From the IMG/VR virus record IMGVR_UViG_3300020048_000022: 64,000 bases of DNA; one strand, 5' to 3'. The notes under the pieces were generated by a model, which searched no databases, was not told where the DNA came from, and saw only the letters and a program-made list of their open reading frames with translations. Shown here in pieces: positions 3,230-63,095 of the stretch. This stretch comes from an uncultured virus (IMG/VR IMGVR_UViG_3300020048_000022). Taxonomy: Duplodnaviria; Heunggongvirae; Uroviricota; Caudoviricetes. Position 1 is the first letter of the stretch, and each line of letters starts with the position of its first letter. Position numbers and translations under genes: made by a program.

Positions 3230-4666
3230 ATGATTCATTTAAAATCATTTATAAATTTTATTAACGAAGGTGCTTGGTACGTGGGAAATGAAGAAGATCC
3301 TGAAAGTATTAGAGCTTTTATTTCTTTACAAAACGATTTTAATAATCCCAACGAATTATTAAAAACCCCGCCGTTAACAGGTAAAAATTACTCTGTTGAA
3401 GGACTTGGAAATATTAAAGTATATTACGGATTATACCCTCTTACCCCTTATTCAGGAACAAGAGGAGCAAACGGTGATCATGAATCTCAAAGAGCTAAGA
3501 AATACATCATGGATAATCTTAAAAAGGGAAATCCTAATATTGTTTCAATGGCTCCTGATGAAACATTAGAAAATTTTATAGAAAAAACGTTCATTAATAA
3601 TTTATCGTCTAATAGAGTAGATTATATAGTTAAGGTTGGTACATCACAAGGTCTGGTGGAAAAAATGGGTAAATCCTTATCTATTTTATATCCAGATTCT
3701 GAAGTTATAGATCTAACGAAGATAGATTATTTCAGTGCGGATGATGCAATAGATAAAGAAGCTTTAGAAAGATCTATAAAAAGAGAAATGAATAAACCCA
3801 GATATGCTGATAAGGAAAAGACAATCAAGATTGAAGGATACTCTTCTACAAAACCTCTCGTTGAAGACTGGGCAAAAAGAATAACAAAAAGTCTTAGAGA
3901 CAGAATAGAAGGCGGTGAGGAAAATCCATCATTCAAGATAAAATCTACAGGTATTAAAGGAAGTGTAAGATCCGCTCTTAGACCTAAATATAATACAGCA
4001 ACAGAGGAATTTGTTAATGCTGTAGTGCATTGTGTATTTGGAGATGAAAATGGAGATACGGGAAAGATGGTTATAATAGATGATAATAGCCAGGAGTTCA
4101 TAGATTTTAGAAATATATCAAATAAAATAGTAGAGATTCTTGCAGGAATAATAGACGTCACTTCTAACAAAGCACAAAAGGCTTTATTGGCTAGCAATAT
4201 ATTTGATGGCATTAAAGATAATTATAAAAAACATCTTGCTATCAGAGGAGCGGAGGATTATCTTGGAGATATAATGCCAGATATTAGCGATGAAAAAATT
4301 AAAAAAAGAATAGAAAATAATATAGCAGGATACGTTCTATATACTTTTAACAGCAAAATATCATATCATAAATATTCTACTAAAACGGACAAAGAAGGGA
4401 ATAAGGTAAAGAAATTGGTTAAGACGTTTGATAATAAATTTACTAAAGCACAAAGATTAGCTTTAGGTAAATTAGTATTTGATTTAATTAGTGCTGTTAG
4501 AATAAGAGTACCAATGTATAGATTTATAGAAGCTTCTCAGCCTTATGCTATAGAGAGGATTAATAGGGATAAAAACGTGGGATCTGAAGCAGAACTAAAA
4601 AAAATGTACAAAGAATATCTAATCGCAAATAAGATAGATAATAATACAAACTGGACAGGAAGATAA
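3230..4666 (+). CDS. hypothetical protein with KSF..FINE N-terminus; possible degenerate PRTase-like motif
   Basis: 478-aa ORF; MVIIDDN only weakly resembles a PRTase loop. Confidence 0.6.
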   Translation: MIHLKSFINFINEGAWYVGNEEDPESIRAFISLQNDFNNPNELLKTPPLTGKNYSVEGLGNIKVYYGLYPLTPYSGTRGANGDHESQRAKKYIMDNLKKGNPNIVSMAPDETLENFIEKTFINNLSSNRVDYIVKVGTSQGLVEKMGKSLSILYPDSEVIDLTKIDYFSADDAIDKEALERSIKREMNKPRYADKEKTIKIEGYSSTKPLVEDWAKRITKSLRDRIEGGEENPSFKIKSTGIKGSVRSALRPKYNTATEEFVNAVVHCVFGDENGDTGKMVIIDDNSQEFIDFRNISNKIVEILAGIIDVTSNKAQKALLASNIFDGIKDNYKKHLAIRGAEDYLGDIMPDISDEKIKKRIENNIAGYVLYTFNSKISYHKYSTKTDKEGNKVKKLVKTFDNKFTKAQRLALGKLVFDLISAVRIRVPMYRFIEASQPYAIERINRDKNVGSEAELKKMYKEYLIANKIDNNTNWTGR

Positions 4667-16380: not shown

Positions 16381-16590
16381 TATCTGGGGTACCTCATATA
16401 TAGTGATCTATGGTAACCACTGCTAATACATGCTTTACTTATGGATCCGGGGGTACCTCAGTGTGTTTACCATAGAGCAAGTACATGAAATACATGCTAT
16501 GTTATCCCTATCTGGGGTACCTTCCTTGCTTTACCATAGAGCAGATAATCATTATACATGCTATTACATCTTCATCTGGGGTGCCTTCCT
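16381..16590. repeat. four imperfect direct repeats with exact 64-bp period
   Basis: GGGGT ends at 16390, 16454, 16518 and 16582; shared TTTACCATAGAGCA and ATACATGCT. Confidence 0.85.
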
Positions 16591-16673
16591 TGGTCTTCTT
16601 CTCTTCCTAAGGCTTTGTGCACAAAAAAAGAGGTTGTTAAGACCTCTTCATTTTAGTGATGTGTAATGAGTGT

Positions 16674-20459: not shown

Positions 20460-20724
20460 AATTTGTTTTTGTTTAATTGATTAACATTACAAATATAAGT
20501 GGTCTTCTTTGATATTAAAAATGATTTCTGGGAATTTCTTGGAAATTTCCACAAGGGTACTGATCCATCCCTCTGGGGTTCCTACTCTGATCCTTACAGC
20601 GGGGGTTCCTCCAGCTGGACGCGCGGACTCGGCGCGGAATCCGATCCGAATCTTTTTAAATAAAAAAAAGACTCCGAAGAGTCTTTCCTTTTACATCTGA
20701 TAAGTGTTAATCAATCAAAAGTGT

Positions 20725-30842: not shown

Positions 30843-31022
30843 AGCTTTTATTTAATTGGTTAACTCAAATATATAGATTTTTCTACATAATTAAAAATGA
30901 TTTCCCAACATTTCCTGATCAGAATCTCTGGGGTTCCCCAAGATATCCTGCGGCTGCTACGTGGCAAACCTGAGGCCACAAAAAAAGACCCCGAAGGGTC
31001 TTAGTCGTTAACCAATTAACTC

Positions 31023-31442: not shown

Positions 31443-31582
31443 AGTTAATTATTTAATTGATTTACATAGCTAATATAGAAACTTCTACTTGATATAAAAA
31501 ATGATTTTTAGAAATTTCTGGAAAAAGTTTTAAGGGAGAAAAAAAAGGTCCCGAAGGACCTTCTCTTGATAACCAATCAAAC

Positions 31583-31834
31583 TTAATCTACCCAAATCTC
31601 TTGAGATTCAGAAACCGATCTCCATGCGCCTTTCTCCAAATCGTAATAAGAAGTTTTAGCTCCTGGTGATGTACCACCCTTAGGGTGTTGTAGTGAAGGA
31701 ACACGATCGAGATCTAATGTTCCTAATGCGATGCGTAATGATCCGCCAACCTTTCTGTAATAGAATTTGAACGAACCTGTTCTTAGACCTTTCTTAAGAT
31801 CCGTGTGTGAAATTTGTTTTAAACTGTCTGCCAT
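31583..31834 (-). CDS. WYL_2/DUF2693-like Sm-like SH3 beta-barrel protein
   Basis: F.Y.KV.GS.R.A.GTL, P...HPKG, YYDLEK.AWRS. Confidence 0.8.
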   Translation of the reverse strand: MADSLKQISHTDLKKGLRTGSFKFYYRKVGGSLRIALGTLDLDRVPSLQHPKGGTSPGAKTSYYDLEKGAWRSVSESQEIWVD

Positions 31835-34397: not shown

Positions 34398-34614
34398 AAT
34401 AATAAGGTTTTGGTTTTTCCTTTGGCTTGCTCGTCTTACTCATAATTATCCGTTTTTGTATAGAGTAAATGTAGACGATTCTACTTGATATAAAAAATGA
34501 TTTTATATAAAATTTACTCGAGGAAAAAAACGATTCTTAGAAAAAATGTGAACAAAAAAAAGCCGGATATAAACCCGGCTTCTCCAAACAACCAATCGAA
34601 CGAACAACAACTGA

Positions 34615-35271: not shown

Positions 35272-36777
35272 TTATTGAAATTCCACTCTAACCACTTGAT
35301 TGACGATTGAAGATACCTCTTTAGGTAGAAGCTTCAAATCCCAAACACATTTCGAATAAGTGTAAAGAGTTCCGACGTGGTCTGCTTCGATACCAATTCC
35401 GACTGTGACAAATTCGTCTCTTCTTGCTCGTTCTAAAATTCTTTTGAGCTCTTCGTTATGCGCTTGACCTCCATAACTATTACCGCAAGGTTCACCGTCG
35501 GATAGAGATATGAAGATTATGCGGTCATCATTAGTCTCTCGCACTTTCTTATGAATAGCTTCGATAACCGGTCCATCGTAATTTTGTTGCCAAGACACCT
35601 GATTGTAAAAGCGGATATTCTTTTCGTACTCTGGGTCGTGTGGTGAATAGAACGTGTAAATCTCAGGTGAGTACTCTCCACTATGTCCGTAGATGTATAA
35701 TTTATCTGGAGGTAGAATTTGACTCATTGCGAGATACAGAGTATTCAGAATATGATGCTGAGCGGCAATTCGATTTCCTTGTCCCATGCTTCCTGACATG
35801 TCGGCTAATATACATACTGAGAAGGGTTTCGTATCCTGCTCCTCTACCGTTTGTTTATAGACGCTCATATTCCCTGCAGGGATCTCGGCTATTTTAGATG
35901 TGTCGAGTTTGCCAATTCGAAGGTTCTTAACATCATCGCTCTTCGGATCAAAACTGATGTCCAATAGTTTGATTAACATCTCGGAATCTTTCTTCTCCGC
36001 TTCAGTGAAACGATAAGTATTTTCTTCTTTGATTTTCTTTTTATCAAAAGGTACGAACTTAGGTATTTCTGTATATTCGGATAATGATTTTGTATGCGAC
36101 CAAGGTTTACTTTCGTTAATGTCTTTCATTAACTCCTGAATCGTCTTACCGCTTTTTCCTTGAGGTTGACTTCTACCAGGTTTCTTGCCTTCGCCTTTTG
36201 CTTCACCCTCGCCTTCTCCTTCACTTTCGTTCTCTCCTTCTCCTTCTCCCTCGTCTTCTCCTTCGCCTTCTCCTTCACTTTCGTTCTCTCCTTCTCCCTC
36301 GCCTTCTCCCTCGCCTTCTCCCTCGCCTTCTCCTTTCTCTGGTTTCGGTTCAGGAATTTCCATCTCGATTGTACTTGATAAGATCGAATCTTTGAAGTGT
36401 TCAAACATAGGCGCCATCTCAGGATAAGCTGCGCAAATCCGACTTAAGATATCTTCGCTATCCAAAGACACTACCGAATACTTCTTAATAGTGGTTCCGA
36501 AGTAAGAAGGCTTCTCGATAACCTTTGAAGGAAACTTATCGATTAAACCTTTCTCTTTCGCTTTAAGGATATAAAGTTTAACAAGCTTCTCCGCTTGCCA
36601 ACTTCCTAATTCCTTAGCGGCTTCGCCATTGGCTTTCACGTCCAAATCGAAGTCTAATTTAATAAATGGATAATCCGAGAGTACTCTACTAAATCCACCA
36701 AAGTGAGACTTTTCCCACCCTGAGGTTGATTTGTAACCTCCGCCCCATGAACTACCCCATCCTTTGTAACCTGCCAT
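35272..36777 (-). CDS. VWA-domain protein (CobT/NorD-like), paralog A
   Basis: MIDAS DMSGSM, NYDG..I, LSDGEP, VGIGI; (EG)n acidic linker. Confidence 0.9.
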   Translation of the reverse strand: MAGYKGWGSSWGGGYKSTSGWEKSHFGGFSRVLSDYPFIKLDFDLDVKANGEAAKELGSWQAEKLVKLYILKAKEKGLIDKFPSKVIEKPSYFGTTIKKYSVVSLDSEDILSRICAAYPEMAPMFEHFKDSILSSTIEMEIPEPKPEKGEGEGEGEGEGEGEGENESEGEGEGEDEGEGEGENESEGEGEGEAKGEGKKPGRSQPQGKSGKTIQELMKDINESKPWSHTKSLSEYTEIPKFVPFDKKKIKEENTYRFTEAEKKDSEMLIKLLDISFDPKSDDVKNLRIGKLDTSKIAEIPAGNMSVYKQTVEEQDTKPFSVCILADMSGSMGQGNRIAAQHHILNTLYLAMSQILPPDKLYIYGHSGEYSPEIYTFYSPHDPEYEKNIRFYNQVSWQQNYDGPVIEAIHKKVRETNDDRIIFISLSDGEPCGNSYGGQAHNEELKRILERARRDEFVTVGIGIEADHVGTLYTYSKCVWDLKLLPKEVSSIVNQVVRVEFQ

Positions 36778-36802
36778 ATCTCTTTTGTTTAATTGGTTAA
36801 GA

Positions 36803-36839
36803 CAAATATATGGATTTTTCTACAATATAAAAAATGATT
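36803..36839 (-). promoter_or_regulatory. class-I promoter (representative copy)
   Basis: AATCATTTTTT-ATATTGTAGAAAAATCCA-TATATTTG then TCTTAACCAATTAAACAAAAGAGAT-ATG. Confidence 0.9.
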
Positions 36840-36981
36840 CCTGAAATAAACCTATTTGTAGTATTTGTAGATTCATTTCCGGGGGTTCCCCAAGATTTTC
36901 CTTATTTGCCTTATTCGGATTCTTGGCCCACAAAAAAAGGAGACCGAAGTCTCCTCTCTTAGATATATGGAGGGTGTGGAA

Positions 36982-38448
36982 TTACTGAAACTCGGTCTTA
37001 ACGACTTGATTTAAAATGTTCGCAATTTCCTTTGGCATCTTAGTCAAATCGAAAACTGATTTGTGATACGTGTAAAGTTCCTTTACATAATCTGTAGCGA
37101 TACCAATACCTACTGTGACAAATTGATCTCTCCTCGCTCTCTCTAGAATTTTCTTCATGTTGTCGACATCGTCGCAAGGCTGTCCATCGGAAAGACTAAT
37201 AAGAATAACTGGTCGGTCTGTGGTCTCTCGTATCTTCTTGTGAACCGCTTCGATTACTACTCCATCGTAATTTGATTGATTCTCGATCTTGTAATATTGC
37301 TGTATATTCTGAAGATAGTTTGGAGAGTACGGACTACAGAATGTGTGGATTGTGGGATCGTTATCATCTGTGTGTCCGTAGATATGTAAATCGCTTTCAG
37401 GAATGATTTCGCTAAGTGCTAGGTATATCGAATTCAGAACCGAGAATTGCATATCTAATCTTGATCCCTGCATACTACCAGACATATCGGCTAACACACA
37501 TACGGCAAATTCTTTTGTGTCCTGATCGTCAACTGTCTGTTTATAGACACTCATATTTCCTGCAGGGATCTCGGCTATTTTTGAAGTGTCGAGCTTACCA
37601 ATGCGAAGGTTCTTAACCTCGTCACTCTTAGGATCGAAACTAATATCAAGCTGTTTAAGTATCATCTCGGCATTTTGTTTCTCTTCATGCGTCGGTTTGT
37701 AATCTTCTCTTTTAGAAGACTTATCTTTAGGCGTAATAAACTTAGGCTTATAATCATCGCCACTTAAACTACCCCATTTTGCAAATGGTTTCTGTTCCGC
37801 CATTCCTTCAATAAGCTCCTTAAGCTTTTTGTAGTCCGGAGTCGAAGCTCCCCATCCGCCAGGCTGCTTTTTCTCCTTGCCCTCACCTTCTCCGTCGTCT
37901 TGTCCTTCACCTTCGCCTTCACCTTCGCCTTCACCATCTCCTTCTTGTCCTTCCCCTTGGCCTTCTTTCTCGTCTTCGCCTTCTCCCTCTCCTTCACCTC
38001 CTTGACCTTCGCCATCCTCCTCTTCAGGAACTTCGACCTCGATTGAGCTATTTAGAATAGCGTCTTTGAAGTGTTCGAACAAAGGAGCAAACTCTTTAGA
38101 CTTCCTCATGACCTCGTTTAGTACATCAAGACGATCTAACTTAAGTACGTCGAACTGTGCATCGCGACCTATAATGTTTGGCTTAACCACTCGCTCTATT
38201 GTGAGGTGATGAATAAGTTCGTACTCTTTACATTTCATAACGTAGATCTTAACGAGCTTCTCCGCTGTGAAGATTCCTTCCTTCTTTCTTAGCTCTGGAT
38301 CTGCTTCGATCCTACCTTCGTGCCCAATCTTGATATATGGGTAGTCCCAGATGATTCGACTAAATCCTCCGTAGTGTGAATGTTCCCACCCTGACGTTGA
38401 CCAAAACGATCTTTTCTTTTTACCATATCCGTACCCGTATCCTGACAT
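36982..38448 (-). CDS. VWA-domain protein (CobT/NorD-like), paralog B
   Basis: DMSGSM, NYDG, LSDGQP; acidic Gly-Glu linker. Confidence 0.9.
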   Translation of the reverse strand: MSGYGYGYGKKKRSFWSTSGWEHSHYGGFSRIIWDYPYIKIGHEGRIEADPELRKKEGIFTAEKLVKIYVMKCKEYELIHHLTIERVVKPNIIGRDAQFDVLKLDRLDVLNEVMRKSKEFAPLFEHFKDAILNSSIEVEVPEEEDGEGQGGEGEGEGEDEKEGQGEGQEGDGEGEGEGEGEGQDDGEGEGKEKKQPGGWGASTPDYKKLKELIEGMAEQKPFAKWGSLSGDDYKPKFITPKDKSSKREDYKPTHEEKQNAEMILKQLDISFDPKSDEVKNLRIGKLDTSKIAEIPAGNMSVYKQTVDDQDTKEFAVCVLADMSGSMQGSRLDMQFSVLNSIYLALSEIIPESDLHIYGHTDDNDPTIHTFCSPYSPNYLQNIQQYYKIENQSNYDGVVIEAVHKKIRETTDRPVILISLSDGQPCDDVDNMKKILERARRDQFVTVGIGIATDYVKELYTYHKSVFDLTKMPKEIANILNQVVKTEFQ

Positions 38449-38555
38449 ATCCTTTTGTTTAATTGGTTAAGACAAATATAGAAAATTCTACTTAATATAA
38501 AAAATGATTTCAAAAAAAAGGACTGACGAATTTAATCGCCAGTCCCGTATCTTTT

Positions 38556-39596
38556 TTACTTAGCGTCGTCCAAGATCGCTTTGATACTTTTAAGACCTTC
38601 TTGACTTCCAAGACCTTTGCAAAGTACGACGTAACCGTCATAGATCGTAAAGCCGTTTGAAACCAATTTCGTAATTGTCTTAAGGTGACGAAGCGAAAGG
38701 TTGAACGAGATTTTGAACTCTTCGTGTTCCTTGTTAATCTTAGTGAACACGTCAACCAATTTTTTGATCTTCGTATCGTCCACTGTAGGGAACTCGCTTT
38801 TAAGCGTTGCCTCGATATCTTTGCTGTTGATTGCATCGACTTCGATTAACATGAAGCGGTCAAGTAATGCACGGTCTAACTTGTGCGTTCCTGTGTATTG
38901 ACTACCCATGTTAGCCGTTGAGAAGAACACGCAGTTCGGGTGGATCTTTACGGCCGTCGTATCGTGGAACGAATACTCCATCGGTAACTCTCTTCGGAAG
39001 TCAAGGCAAGGGAATAACAAGTTGTTCGACATTGCTCCAGCTCTTGAGATTTCGTCTAAGAGTACGATACCCGGTTGTTGAATGACCTCGGAGAAGCGAG
39101 AACGTTTGAACTCCGATTTCGTTACTCCGTCTTCTACTGTGATGACGTGAGTTCCGACAAGCCCCATTACAGGATCGGTCATTGTGCCCATGTCGAAGAT
39201 CGTAAGCGGTATTCCAAATACCTTAGCCAAGTTTGCGACCACTTCCGTCTTTCCAGTTCCCGTTGCCCCGATAAGCATCGTATTGACCCCAAATTCGATG
39301 TTGTGCTTAGCGATCTCGAAAGTGCCCGACTCCATCTTGAAGTATCCGTTCAGTGTGACAGTGTTGCCCGACTTCACAGCCAACTTAGGGTCTGCGGTTA
39401 AGCGAGGGGATTCGTCTATCGCTTCTACAGCTTCCGATACTACCGTCTTTCTCTTTCTTAGAGATTCCGAGATCTTTGCCTTAGCTTCCTCGCTCATAGG
39501 CTTTCTCACTTTCGGAGTAGCTTCTGATGCCGCTGCCAGGTCTAAAATTTCCAACGTTTCCGTTACTGCCACTTCTGCTTTTTTTGTTCTTGCCAT
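38556..39596 (-). CDS. MoxR-type AAA+ ATPase (CbbQ/NirQ/NorQ/CobS-like)
   Basis: Walker A GATGTGKT, Walker B VLLDEISRA, TAN.G..Y.GT..LD.ALLDRF, S.R.L. Confidence 0.92.
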   Translation of the reverse strand: MARTKKAEVAVTETLEILDLAAASEATPKVRKPMSEEAKAKISESLRKRKTVVSEAVEAIDESPRLTADPKLAVKSGNTVTLNGYFKMESGTFEIAKHNIEFGVNTMLIGATGTGKTEVVANLAKVFGIPLTIFDMGTMTDPVMGLVGTHVITVEDGVTKSEFKRSRFSEVIQQPGIVLLDEISRAGAMSNNLLFPCLDFRRELPMEYSFHDTTAVKIHPNCVFFSTANMGSQYTGTHKLDRALLDRFMLIEVDAINSKDIEATLKSEFPTVDDTKIKKLVDVFTKINKEHEEFKISFNLSLRHLKTITKLVSNGFTIYDGYVVLCKGLGSQEGLKSIKAILDDAK

Positions 39597-40401: not shown

Positions 40402-40595
40402 ATTGAATTAATTGGTTAAGACAAATATATGGATTTTTCTACAATATAAAAAATGATTTCCAAAAAAATCTAGTCCGCGTTTTTCACCGCAGTGCGCCTG
40501 AGGATCCCCAGGGAATTTGGGATGGCCTAAAAAAGTTTAGGGCAAAAGAAAGGGCTCAGATTTCTCTGAGCCCCGTGTTTTAAACCAATTAAACA

Positions 40596-41015
40596 CTAAA
40601 CGTCTTTTTCCACACCGTTTAATATATCAACAACTGATTTAATCGTTTCATCAACAACCTTCCATTCATTGTCTCTTGTGAACACATATCCGTATTCTTC
40701 ATAGTCGGACTTAGCGTAAGCTTCGATTGATTCATCAATTCTAGCTTCTTGAAGTGCCTCACCTCGGTCTCTGTGATAAGCGATTGTGACATCTTCTTGT
40801 GGTGACTCAAACGAGTGTGTCCCACTAGTATTAACGAGATTCTTTCTTAAGGAACTAATTGACCCTAAAGAGATTAACGCTTCAACATTCTCACGGTCTG
40901 AGTAATGCTTAACTAGTAAGTCACCGTTATGAGAAGGGTATCCATCCCAGTGACAATAAACTGAAGAGACTGAGCCATCTTCGTTTTCAATTCCGATTCT
41001 TGATCTTGTTGCCAT
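40596..41015 (-). CDS. conserved phage hypothetical protein
   Basis: MATRSRIG, YCHWDGYP..NG..L, AYHRDRGE, EYGY.F. Confidence 0.8.
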   Translation of the reverse strand: MATRSRIGIENEDGSVSSVYCHWDGYPSHNGDLLVKHYSDRENVEALISLGSISSLRKNLVNTSGTHSFESPQEDVTIAYHRDRGEALQEARIDESIEAYAKSDYEEYGYVFTRDNEWKVVDETIKSVVDILNGVEKDV

Positions 41016-42039: not shown

Positions 42040-42225
42040 GACTGAATCTTTAATTGGTTAAGCTAATATATAGAATCTTCTACAAAATAAAAAATGATTT
42101 CCAAGAAAGTTTTAAGTATCCGGTTTCGGGGGTTCCTCAGGAAGTGTGCGGAAGTGCTACGAAAAAAGCCCAACAAAAAAGCCCGAGATAATTCTCAGGC
42201 TTTTTTTATATAATGATGGAAGTCG

Positions 42226-42657
42226 CTATTGAATAGCTTCCTTCTCCTTGATTTCAAGAATGTCCTCTAAGATCGAATCCAGAGTGCGATCATTTTTGGT
42301 TTTAATTCTTTCTTGAATTCGATTGGCTCTTTCGTTAAGCACACTATTAATACGTGTCTTAAGCTGTGCGCGAACCTTATCATTGAAATGTAAATAATAC
42401 TGAAACTTACCGTTGATTATCTCAAGATCATTTCCGTCAAGTATAAGGTAAATATCTCCAATAACAATATAAATAACGTCACTTTCCCAGTGTGCGGCAA
42501 TCTCTACGTCCTTAATAGAAATAGCTTTTTCAAATATTTTGATTCCTCTCTTCTGATTCTCCGATAGAGTCTGATTAGGAAAAAACTTATCACCCACAGA
42601 GTTAGTGCGTTTTAGAAATCTAAGCCATTGTACTCGGATGTTTCTTTTGATACTCAT
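42226..42657 (-). CDS. hypothetical protein (predicted sRNA target)
   Basis: 143-aa ORF downstream of the WYL_2-like gene. Confidence 0.75.
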   Translation of the reverse strand: MSIKRNIRVQWLRFLKRTNSVGDKFFPNQTLSENQKRGIKIFEKAISIKDVEIAAHWESDVIYIVIGDIYLILDGNDLEIINGKFQYYLHFNDKVRAQLKTRINSVLNERANRIQERIKTKNDRTLDSILEDILEIKEKEAIQ

Positions 42658-42674
42658 ATTTAGGTTGTTATTGG

Positions 42675-42920
42675 TTACTTAATTATCTTAACCTTCTCTA
42701 CCGTCTCAGCAATCGCTCTCCACTCATTAAGGTCTAAGTCGAAATAGGGAGTTCCTAAATGAGCTTTGTTGTCCCCTTTCGGATGCCATTCTTCTGGTAT
42801 TAAATCCAAACGAGTCGTACCATATGCAGCTCTCTTTGAACCATCAACTTTTTCGAACTCAAATCTGACCTCTCCTTTAGCTAATCGTTTCTCTAAGACA
42901 CTTCTTTTAATCTTTCCCAT
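42675..42920 (-). CDS. WYL_2/DUF2693-like Sm-like SH3 beta-barrel protein (second copy)
   Basis: V.F.F.KVDGS.R.A.GT, IP...HPKG, YFDLD..EWR. Confidence 0.8.
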   Translation of the reverse strand: MGKIKRSVLEKRLAKGEVRFEFEKVDGSKRAAYGTTRLDLIPEEWHPKGDNKAHLGTPYFDLDLNEWRAIAETVEKVKIIK

Positions 42921-45533: not shown

Positions 45534-45805
45534 AGTTTCCCCCTTTTGTTTATTAATTTATAGATCAAATATAAGGAATTATCTCTGAGAAAAAAAATGA
45601 TTTCTAGAAATTTCTATTAATCCGATGCGGAATCCGAGCGGCTCGCACTACGGAATCCGAGCGGAATCCGACACTCGAATCTCTCTCTGGGGTTCCCCAA
45701 GAATTCTGCGGATGCAATGCAGAGAAAATCCGGATGTGGCTGCGGATTAATCACGGGGGTTCCACAGGCGCCATCGATTCGTATAGAATTTTCTACAAAT
45801 GTCCG

Positions 45806-45890
45806 CACAAAAAAACCGAGACGAATCCCGGTTTTTTTCTAACCAATATAAACCTAAATAGTATGAGCGAAACCTGAGTGGAGTTTCACA
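45806..45890 (-). ncRNA. candidate small regulatory RNA (ORF-less promoter-terminator unit)
   Basis: Promoter variant 45894-45925, 5' hairpin GTGAAAC/GTTTCGC, terminator CCGGGA-TTCG-TCTCGG-T-run, no AUG-initiated ORF. Confidence 0.6.
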
Positions 45891-45946
45891 CCGCAAATAT
45901 AAGCGGTCTTTCACTAATAAAAAAATTTAATTCGGATAAATACACT

Positions 45947-46504: not shown

Positions 46505-47167
46505 TTATTTACTCATCTTAACCTCAGTGCCATTAGCAGTCACATTCACAGTGATGTTAACACCGTAGTCCTTAACGATCTGAGCAAGCTGAATCAACTC
46601 GATTGAATTGTTAACCGATGCTGGAGTAGCAACTGGAGCAGCTACGGGAGCAGTGTGTTCTTTCACTTCCTCAACCACATCTTCTATTACCTCTGGAGAT
46701 TCTAGTACATGAGTCATTGGCTTACGTACTCTTTTGATTCCTTTACCAAGAGTGAATCTTGTCTCAGGATCATTAAAGAATCCCTCATCGATCAATTGAC
46801 ACTTACGACAGTAGATAGAAGGAGCAGTGCGTCCTAGAAGCTCAACAGTCTCTTTCACAGTCATCTTACTAAGTACAGCATCTCTTAACATCTCATCTTC
46901 TTCTTGAGTCCATCTCTGATTCGAATTAGGAGTTGCAGAACTCACTGTTGATGTACGTACCTTACGTCCATTAATAGTACTAGGAGTCTTAACCGAACCA
47001 TCAGCTAAGTAACGTGTACCTCTTGGTCTCACTTTGGAACCTAGGATTCTTCGTAGAGTCTCAGGGTTGATTCCGTGCTTACTAGCAACATCTCTTAATG
47101 TTCCGTTGTTGTGCACATAATCTTTTGTTGCTGCAGCCTTGACTGCCTTTGAAATTACTCTTGCCAT
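46505..47167 (-). CDS. DNA-binding protein with HTH and Myb-like domains
   Basis: TLRDVASKHGINPETLRRIL; RWTQEEDEML...LGRT..SI. Confidence 0.7.
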   Translation of the reverse strand: MARVISKAVKAAATKDYVHNNGTLRDVASKHGINPETLRRILGSKVRPRGTRYLADGSVKTPSTINGRKVRTSTVSSATPNSNQRWTQEEDEMLRDAVLSKMTVKETVELLGRTAPSIYCRKCQLIDEGFFNDPETRFTLGKGIKRVRKPMTHVLESPEVIEDVVEEVKEHTAPVAAPVATPASVNNSIELIQLAQIVKDYGVNITVNVTANGTEVKMSK

Positions 47168-47188
47168 TATTTATTTAGATTTAAAAAG

Positions 47189-47572
47189 TTACAGATCTTC
47201 AACAAAGAACATAGCCATAGTGATGCGCTTACCATTAGCTCGTGCTATCTGACGAGCCGCAGATGACATATCCTTAGCTTGCTCTCTTGTGATTGTTTGT
47301 GGTGTATCAACCTGAGTGACACCAGTAGGTATTTTAACCTCTTTACCCTTTGAGTTCTTTATCTTGGGAGACTTTACCTCAACCTTAATCTTCTTAGTCT
47401 TAGTTAATCCCATTTGCGATTTCTGATAGATCACAGCCGCTGGAGTGCGTCCTAGTGCATCAGAGATTTCTTTAATTGCCTTTCCCTCTTTGGTCATGGT
47501 CTTAAGAGACTTCCGATCTTGTTTAGTCCATTTTGACATATTGCGGGACGGGGTCGTAGTTTTGATTTCCAT
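47189..47572 (-). CDS. Myb/GcrA-like HTH protein
   Basis: KWT..D...L......G..IKEISDALGRT..AV......MGL. Confidence 0.7.
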   Translation of the reverse strand: MEIKTTTPSRNMSKWTKQDRKSLKTMTKEGKAIKEISDALGRTPAAVIYQKSQMGLTKTKKIKVEVKSPKIKNSKGKEVKIPTGVTQVDTPQTITREQAKDMSSAARQIARANGKRITMAMFFVEDL

Positions 47573-60883: not shown

Positions 60884-61025
60884 TTATAATGTAAATGTAG
60901 AATAATCTCTTTAATAAAAAAAATGATTTCTAAAATTTCTTTTTGTTTTATTTCTTATCATTTTTTGTTTATCGGATTAACACTATAAATGTAGAACAAT
61001 CTATTCGATTAAAAAAATGATTTCA
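60884..61025. repeat. duplicated tandem-promoter block (copy at about 62910-63051)
   Basis: About 85 nt near-identical from TATAATGTAAATGTAGAATAATCTC to TTATCATTTTTTGTTTAT. Confidence 0.9.
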
Positions 61026-61069
61026 CAAGAGAAAAAAGATATATATAGCATAAATAAAAACAAATAGAC

Positions 61070-62880: not shown

Positions 62881-63095
62881 GATTTTTGGTTTTATTTGTT
62901 TATATTAATTTATAATGTAAATGTAGAATAATCTCTTTAATAAAAAAAATGATTTCTGAAATTTCTTTTTGTTTTATTTCTTATCATTTTTTGTTTATTA
63001 GATTAACAAGACAAATATAGAATGTTCTATTTAATAAAAAAAATGATTCCACAAAAAAAGACCCCAAAGGGTCTTTTCAGTTTGATCAGAATTGA

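Follow-up and report, generated by a model that had tools for sequence, protein, structure and literature searches.

A predicted small RNA gene complementary to early gene leaders in a clade of uncultivated freshwater phages

Introduction

The window analyzed here, a stretch of 64,000 nt of phage DNA (IMG/VR record IMGVR_UViG_3300020048_000022), is almost wholly a minus-strand early region of small genes with short spacers between them. Each of these spacers combines a terminator with one or two GGAACCCC boxes and a promoter that is nearly identical from spacer to spacer. One unit on the minus strand (45941-45809) stands out: no other promoter-like site of the window leads into a terminator without an ORF. 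This raises the question of what such a unit encodes and, if it encodes an RNA, on which mRNAs that RNA would act. An initial annotation had read it as the gene of a trans-acting small RNA (sRNA) that represses translation of a 143-aa protein, possibly in the manner of a type I antitoxin.

So far, the sRNAs known to be encoded by phages come from a small number of enterobacterial, Pseudomonas and cyanobacterial phages. A full-text literature search returned no phage sRNA from Bacteroidetes, and no word starting with "Bacteroid" or "Flavobacter" occurs in the 2025 phage sRNA review (PMC12197685).

Results

The early region and its ORF-less unit

The early promoter, AATCATTTTTT-N18-TATATTTG, is present in 22 exact copies in the window, all on the minus strand, with 0 expected. 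The TAnnTTTG -7 box has been described as the sigma-A box of Bacteroidetes, spanning positions -12 to -5 (PMC9723704). Most early leaders open with TTAACCAATTAAA, and when up to one mismatch is allowed, the window holds 129 occurrences of TAACCAAT (94 expected) and 57 of the GGAACCCC box (19.5 expected). Most early units between 15900 and 48300 carry these boxes between the terminator and the next promoter, where they read as GGGGTTCC on the plus strand (e.g., at 42129, 45689 and 45756), often within a dyad such as CTGGGGAACCCCAG; the box is possibly a protein-binding site. We observe no sign of lysogeny in the window.

Several further features of the window and of other viral records are recorded here in their own right. 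A 64-nt tandem repeat of 2 to 4 copies, each with a GGGGTACC box, occupies the intergenic stretch 16386-16592, and two near-identical modules on the minus strand (about 60926-61063 and 62952-63048) each carry two tandem early-type promoters with a short frame of about 15 codons between them. The 478-aa protein encoded at 3230-4666 on the plus strand shows a borderline match to the RAMP superfamily (22.0 bits, cut-off 22.1), and in the early region, at 35272-39596 (minus strand), a gene for a MoxR-type AAA+ ATPase precedes two VWA/CobT_C-like genes. In seven unrelated IMG/VR records (L094, L096, L098, L101, L105, L109 and L119), a conserved promoter is followed by about 90 nt that end in a strong hairpin, which may be another noncoding unit.

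In the order of its predicted transcription, the unit under study starts with a variant of the early promoter, after which come a 5' hairpin, a middle of about 25 nt that is unpaired and, at the end, an intrinsic terminator (Table 1). The initial annotation had listed these parts together with a downstream GGGG box and the lack of an ORF, and every one of them can be read in the sequence, on the minus strand. The promoter variant keeps the 17-18 nt spacing of the 22 exact copies, but is without their ATCA, and the position of its -7 box would place the transcription start at about 45889. The predicted RNA folds at -23 kcal/mol (z -3.2), a value that none of 200 shuffles reaches, and a covariance model of the unit scores 93.6 bits at the window copy. 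The terminator, which was missing from the output of a simple terminator scan, can act in both directions in this phage. Directly 3' of it, on the minus strand at 45778-45802, we observe a degenerate copy of the early promoter in which TTGTAGAAAATTCTATACGAATC replaces ..TATATATTTG.

Table 1. Positions of the unit, its parts and its candidate partners in the window
Feature	Position	Strand	Description
Unit promoter	45894..45941	-	Conserved upstream ATTTATCC, T7 tract, -7 box TATATTTG at 45901-45894
Predicted sRNA, about 80 nt	45809..45889	-	Putative start from the -7 box, putative end from the U-run
5' hairpin	45867..45889	-	8-bp stem, 7-nt loop CCACUCA
Unpaired middle (anti-leader/seed)	45841..45868 (also read as about 45866-45839)	-	Reverse complement resembles the leader cassette with ATG
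Intrinsic terminator	45809..45838	-	A-run, 6-bp G+C-rich stem, 4-nt loop, U7
Two GGAACCCC boxes downstream of the unit terminator	45689..45763	-	Read on the plus strand as GGGGTTCC at 45756-45763 and 45689-45696
Gene C, 141 aa	45947..46372	+	Divergent from the unit promoter; ATG 5 nt past conserved GGATAAAT
Gene B, 220 aa, HTH protein	46505..47167	-	HTH_Tnp_1 and phrog_323 "transcriptional regulator, D5-like"
Gene B start region	47165..47191	-	Gene A stop codon, 21-nt spacer containing AAATCTAAATA, ATG
143-aa gene	42226..42657	-	Second gene, after the WYL_2 gene (42675-42920)
Pairing site of the initial annotation	42653..42677	-	Intercistronic leader and AUGAG of the 143-aa gene
Predicted RNA/start-region pairing blocks			AUUUAGGUU/AACCUAAAU and UAUUGGUUA/UAACCAAUA

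The unit overlaps no ORF and lies upstream of gene C, which is on the other strand. There is no ATG-started ORF on the strand of the RNA, and across the 21 variants described below no ORF is conserved on either strand; an opposite-strand mini-ORF (ATG at 45864, 4 codons) was rejected because several lineages are without it. Judged by these motifs, the unit appears to combine the own promoter, the intrinsic terminator and the missing ORF of a trans-encoded base-pairing sRNA. The window has no Rfam match at gathering thresholds, the best sub-threshold hit reaching 23.8 bits with a threshold of 54. DNA runs from 19 studies contain DNA of this phage. The four runs compared with the window consist of contigs, and those of the two DNA runs have no listed difference from the window in the sRNA or at the site of the 143-aa gene. 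One RNA-library contig of a relative crosses the unit and also 23 of the 30 bins of the whole stretch, which tells nothing about the unit's expression, ends or strand.

Conservation, synteny and covariation

No GenBank phage matches the window by DNA similarity, close relatives of gene C, the 143-aa gene and a 174-aa gene were not found in IMG/VR with peptide patterns, and the exact 28-mer of the RNA middle is absent from that database. Relatives were obtained by scanning IMG/VR with the early-promoter pattern for long contigs with many promoter copies: three (G001-G003) of five related records contain a homologue of the unit (71-74% identity), and in the same three a homologue of the 143-aa gene lies 2.8-3.1 kb downstream of it. 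When metagenomes were scanned with a pattern that joined the -7 box to the core of the middle, 93 loci were obtained, 35 being homologues of the unit and the others unrelated, and an IMG/VR scan with the sRNA-promoter pattern gave 28 loci, of which a single one was a new homologue and the rest were unrelated Bacteroidetes-type promoters. In nine further IMG/VR records, the covariance-model search returned nothing other than terminator look-alikes (27-29 bits, in three records), with no homologue of gene B or C nearby. The collection comprises 21 distinct variants of the unit in about 40 viral or metagenome loci.

The invariance of the -7 box and the core among the metagenome loci arises by construction, because the search pattern fixed both. 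The core of the middle, UAUUUAGRUUU..AUUG, is also kept in the three IMG/VR homologues, which were found by similarity search, and their -7 box is intact although it had not been required. The upstream TTTATCC and T-tract, which lie outside the search pattern, were found in G001-G003 and, among the 35 homologous metagenome loci, in 33. Gene order is fixed, with genes A, B (HTH) and C (opposite strand) followed by the unit. A homologue of gene C adjoins the unit in 37 of 39 loci, the two misses being loci of at most 651 nt, and a homologue of gene B is found upstream in 32 of 39, the other loci being without upstream flank. Gene C itself matches no Pfam or PHROG family and gave no other lead.

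All 21 variants fold as a hairpin, an open middle and a terminator, with stem sequences that differ from one another. On an alignment fitted to the covariance model, a procedure that leans towards the given structure, 93% of the cells are paired and 12 of the 19 pairs have changed on both sides, which none of 500 shuffles matches, while controls with the structure slid along the alignment are 26-60% paired. Changes on both sides affect 6 of the 8 pairs of the 5' hairpin and 6 of the 11 pairs of the terminator, in which 99.6% of the cells are paired. RNAalifold on a MAFFT alignment found the terminator alone, because the 5' hairpin is misaligned there. The earlier description of a stand-alone, ORF-less, sRNA-shaped unit is borne out, and conservation and covariation together are good evidence, at the level of sequence comparison, for a conserved RNA gene. 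The unit also has the conserved single-stranded seed between structured flanks that is characteristic of base-pairing sRNAs, with the qualification that the invariance of the seed is partly forced by the search pattern.

Predicted pairing with start regions

The 23 bp in three blocks that the initial annotation had drawn between the middle of the RNA and positions 42677-42653 are exact (5+9+9). Among the 167 start regions of the window, that of the 143-aa gene ranks first, 7 kcal/mol ahead of the next, both with RNAduplex (-25.7 vs -18.6 kcal/mol for the runner-up) and with cofold, which charges for opening the RNA's own structure (ddG, -22.3 vs -15.2 kcal/mol); the ranking against all start regions that had been put forward as a check comes out in favor of this site. 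Its pairing energy is reached by 2 of 2,000 shuffled targets and by none of 2,000 shuffled sRNA middles. In a scan of 12,790 windows on both strands, the site is the best non-self match with a lead of just 1 kcal/mol, several other positions coming within 1-2 kcal/mol of it (RNAduplex, all positions). The complementarity to a start region is thus beyond chance, with a marginal lead when all positions are scanned.

Outside the closest lineages, the pairing with the 143-aa start falls to background. Energies in relatives are -23.4 (L135), -18.8 (L138), -14.7 (L120) and -13.5 kcal/mol (G001), and -15.3 (G002), -8.9 (G003), -10.7 (L171) and -10.3 kcal/mol (L149), with the start ranking 10th (RNAduplex) and 7th (cofold) in G001, 25th in G002 and 45th in G003 (both cofold). 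Cognate pairs show no advantage over non-cognate ones (-15.7 vs -15.1 kcal/mol, p 0.28). In the close relatives L138 and L120, the sRNA is without the CUCAU that covers the AUG, L138 keeping the AUGAG, and in L146 and L186, which have kept the sRNA, the 4.5 kb downstream contain no homologue of the 143-aa gene. The proposal that this gene is the target of the RNA therefore does not hold for the family, and the pairing with the 143-aa start shows no co-variation in relatives.

A 9-nt stretch at 42718-42726 is identical to the hairpin loop and upper stem of the sRNA, so that the mRNA at this place is the complement of the loop. The stretch falls within the 3' end of the WYL_2 gene, 70 nt ahead of the AUG of the 143-aa gene. 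As a second contact it was set aside: it is kept in L138, and the match is probably due to chance because it is lost in L135 and falls over conserved Glu-Trp codons.

The start of gene B recurs as a site in all four large genomes, where it is always within the top 1 to 7. Its ranks with RNAduplex are 3 of 167 (window), 1 of 211 (G001), 7 of 230 (G002) and 1 of 147 (G003), and with cofold 6, 1, 5 and 7, respectively. An 18-nt perfect match links the sRNA and the gene B start in G001, and the predicted pairing is -14.2 kcal/mol or stronger in 12 of 12 lineages. Cognate pairs are favored (-19.5 vs -16.8 kcal/mol for non-cognate ones; permutation p 0.0006, with shared ancestry uncontrolled), and a single position that alternates between A-U, G.U and G-C was seen by eye. 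The pairing is modest in the window itself (-17.3 kcal/mol, cofold rank 6), and in the L120 group neither gene B (-14.2 kcal/mol) nor the 143-aa gene pairs well. Taken together, these comparisons of sequence suggest the gene B start as a recurrent candidate target across lineages.

Shared leaders and anti-leader motifs

The middle of the RNA is the antisense of the leader cassette of the phage (TAACCAAT..AAAYCTAAATA..ATG), in agreement with the partial match to the general TAACCAAT leader that had been reported before. For start regions with the leader, the real middle is a better pairing partner than shuffled middles (0 of 60 shuffles reach the real value in each of four genomes), and in G002 ordinary leaders are the best-pairing sites. 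Motifs of the anti-leader kind are also found ahead of terminators: ATTGGTT or ATTGATT occurs within 32 nt upstream of 4/27, 4/35, 3/32 and 2/18 terminators in the four genomes, vs 0.6-1.2% of random windows, and the motif in the 3' UTR after a 139-aa gene is conserved in all four related phages. In the window, such motifs lie in minus-strand 3' UTRs at about 40575-40596, 31005-31020, 31565-31580, 34585-34600 and 20700-20716, just past stop codons and before terminators, with an approximately tenfold enrichment over background. The sRNA covariance model also gives a weak hit (31 bits, E 7e-4) at 31539-31615 on the minus strand, which was rejected as a second copy of the sRNA, as it is a 3' UTR with an anti-leader motif and a terminator after the gene at 31583-31834.

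Discussion

We give an even chance to the reading in which the unit is a genuine gene whose product, an sRNA of about 80 nt found in a clade of uncultivated freshwater phages, acts as an anti-leader with a best target that depends on the lineage. Its homologues would then form a probable new family of phage sRNAs, defined by the anti-leader middle and by lineage-specific best targets. Taking the anatomy, the conservation, the stem covariation and the complementarity ranks as observed, we infer transcription, pairing in vivo and repression along the following lines. The RNA would start near 45889, at the foot of the 5' hairpin, and end at the U-run near 45809, and its single-stranded middle would pair with the A-rich, Shine-Dalgarno-less leaders and the start codons of phage early mRNAs. 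Pairing would make the early leaders double-stranded, and initiation would therefore be blocked; the early mRNAs may also become exposed to decay. Initiation in Bacteroidetes is described as relying on leaders that are unstructured and have no Shine-Dalgarno sequence (PMC6847099).

In this phage, the strongest predicted target is the start of the 143-aa gene (42677-42653), the gene B start (47191-47165) would be the site that stays high family-wide, and the generic TAACCAAT leaders would be weaker partners. Because the 143-aa start comes out on top in this phage and the gene B start recurs across the family, the best target appears to vary by lineage. Best targets that differ between lineages are usual for fast-evolving sRNA regulons. 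With gene B as a target, the RNA would act as a post-transcriptional brake on an early regulator.

Unlikely, in our estimate, is a wider scheme in which the sRNA and the 3'-UTR motifs together form a global anti-leader RNA layer, pairing with the common leader cassette of dozens of early mRNAs and timing or shutting off early translation in a host phylum devoid of both Shine-Dalgarno sequences and Hfq, while the strongest sites of the sRNA would put the early HTH regulator and lineage-specific genes under tighter control.

Less likely again is a role of the unit in the service of gene C, either as a cis-antisense RNA on a long 5' UTR or as a back-to-back promoter that competes or insulates, the trans complementarity being incidental. 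The near-constant adjacency of gene C to the unit would fit such a role, as would the conservation of the shared A/T tract and of GGATAAAT, and on the strand of gene C the tract reads, by eye, as a near -7 box (AAAATTTA/G). However, with this tract as the likely promoter of gene C, its mRNA and the sRNA would not overlap, there is no sigma-A-type promoter upstream of the sRNA body on the strand of gene C, and in this phage the unit terminator would stop incoming antisense transcripts. A role for gene C also leaves the conserved unpaired middle and the stem covariation unexplained.

We place lower still the possibility that the sRNA is aimed at host mRNAs, its core pairing with an A-rich host leader that the phage leaders mimic. 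No phage site that the middle pairs with is as conserved as its core, and prophage sRNAs such as DicF are described as acting on host mRNAs (PMC12197685), but the complement extends across the phage-specific TAACCAAT cassette.

Improbable as well is a dedicated trans-repressor of the 143-aa gene alone, in the form of a type I antitoxin-like control of a toxic early protein. The pairing over leader and AUG, first among the start regions by a wide gap and still strong in the closest relative (L135), is what such a repressor would show, but it is at background in G001, G003, L171 and L149, and the gene is missing downstream of the sRNA in two lineages. As to the antitoxin part, which the initial annotation had offered as a possibility, it finds no support in the protein: its model (pLDDT 77.5) has helices and a five-stranded beta meander and is predicted to be soluble, not hydrophobic. 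The protein has no Pfam or PHROG family, no PDB sequence match and no Atlas lead, and its model resembles no PDB fold at E<=0.001. Neither a toxin family nor a toxin fold is matched, and nothing indicates toxicity. Gene and unit are 3.2 kb apart with four genes between them, neither overlapping nor abutting.

Just as improbable is the absence of any RNA function, in which the cassette is a DNA site (the leader motif could work in either orientation), e.g., an operator at +1 to +12 of early promoters for phage HTH proteins, and the unit either a left-over of cassette shuffling or an inverted copy flanked by a promoter-like tract and a terminator. Inverted leader motifs do recur beside terminators, a degenerate promoter copy does lie just downstream (45778-45802) and the cassette is nearly palindromic. 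However, the conservation of the 21 variants extends to the -7 box, which is intact in the three homologues whose detection did not depend on it, and two compensatory stems with a middle kept unpaired are what a transcribed RNA would show, rather than a binding site.

The unit and its homologues represent an sRNA family with structural support, from lake phages that are abundant and uncultivated, and its candidate targets are concrete enough to be tested. Should the anti-leader reading be true, it would amount to RNA-based control of translation in a phylum whose initiation does without Shine-Dalgarno pairing and uses A-rich, unstructured leaders, and it would offer a natural tool for silencing genes that share a common leader.

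Comparison with known systems

Among phage RNAs, the c4 RNA of P1/P7 (77 nt) is described as an antisense RNA that pairs imperfectly around a ribosome binding site and blocks a downstream regulator gene (PMC12197685). The unit resembles it as a phage small RNA that is predicted to pair imperfectly with the phage's own mRNA at a translation start. c4 is excised from the operon transcript that it controls, and it governs the immunity of a temperate phage. In contrast to c4, the unit comes with a promoter and a terminator of its own, and its candidate sites are 1.2-3.3 kb away. It is antisense to a leader of many genes and belongs to a phage without sign of lysogeny in the window.

The sar RNA of P22 (68/69 nt) and the OOP RNA of lambda (77 nt) are reported to have their own promoter and terminator and to repress a phage gene by pairing (PMC12197685). 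Their likeness to the unit lies in being short phage RNAs of that build. Both are cis-antisense RNAs that overlap their target gene with perfect complementarity, whereas the unit overlaps no ORF, and its candidate sites, which lie at other places, are matched imperfectly. The same source describes DicF of the Qin prophage and similar RNAs as trans-acting, with imperfect pairing at the translation initiation region of several targets (PMC12197685). Trans action, imperfect start-region pairing and several sites are likewise predicted for the unit. DicF-type RNAs are Hfq-dependent and act on host genes in enterobacteria, whereas the best sites of the unit are in phage genes. To our knowledge, Bacteroidetes are without Hfq.

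With type I systems such as hok/sok, the unit shares a small RNA with complementarity to a protein gene at its start region. Type I toxins are small hydrophobic peptides, under about 60 aa. The protein at issue here differs in having 143 aa and in being no membrane peptide, its gene is neither adjacent nor overlapping, and there is no evidence of toxicity.

In build, the unit is like chromosomal sRNAs of Bacteroidetes, which, as described, share the TAnnTTTG promoter type with the unit (PMC9723704, PMC7366714). Like the unit, GibS of Bacteroides thetaiotaomicron and the Rfp RNAs of Flavobacterium psychrophilum combine a structured 5' region with a single-stranded seed and end in an intrinsic terminator, and their predicted pairing is at start regions without a Shine-Dalgarno sequence (PMC9723704, PMC7366714). 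They differ from the unit in being chromosomal, not phage-borne, and there is no relation between them in sequence or through Rfam. We predict that the unit, while belonging to no described RNA family, acts like the phage RNAs that block ribosome sites and is built like the sRNAs of Bacteroidetes.
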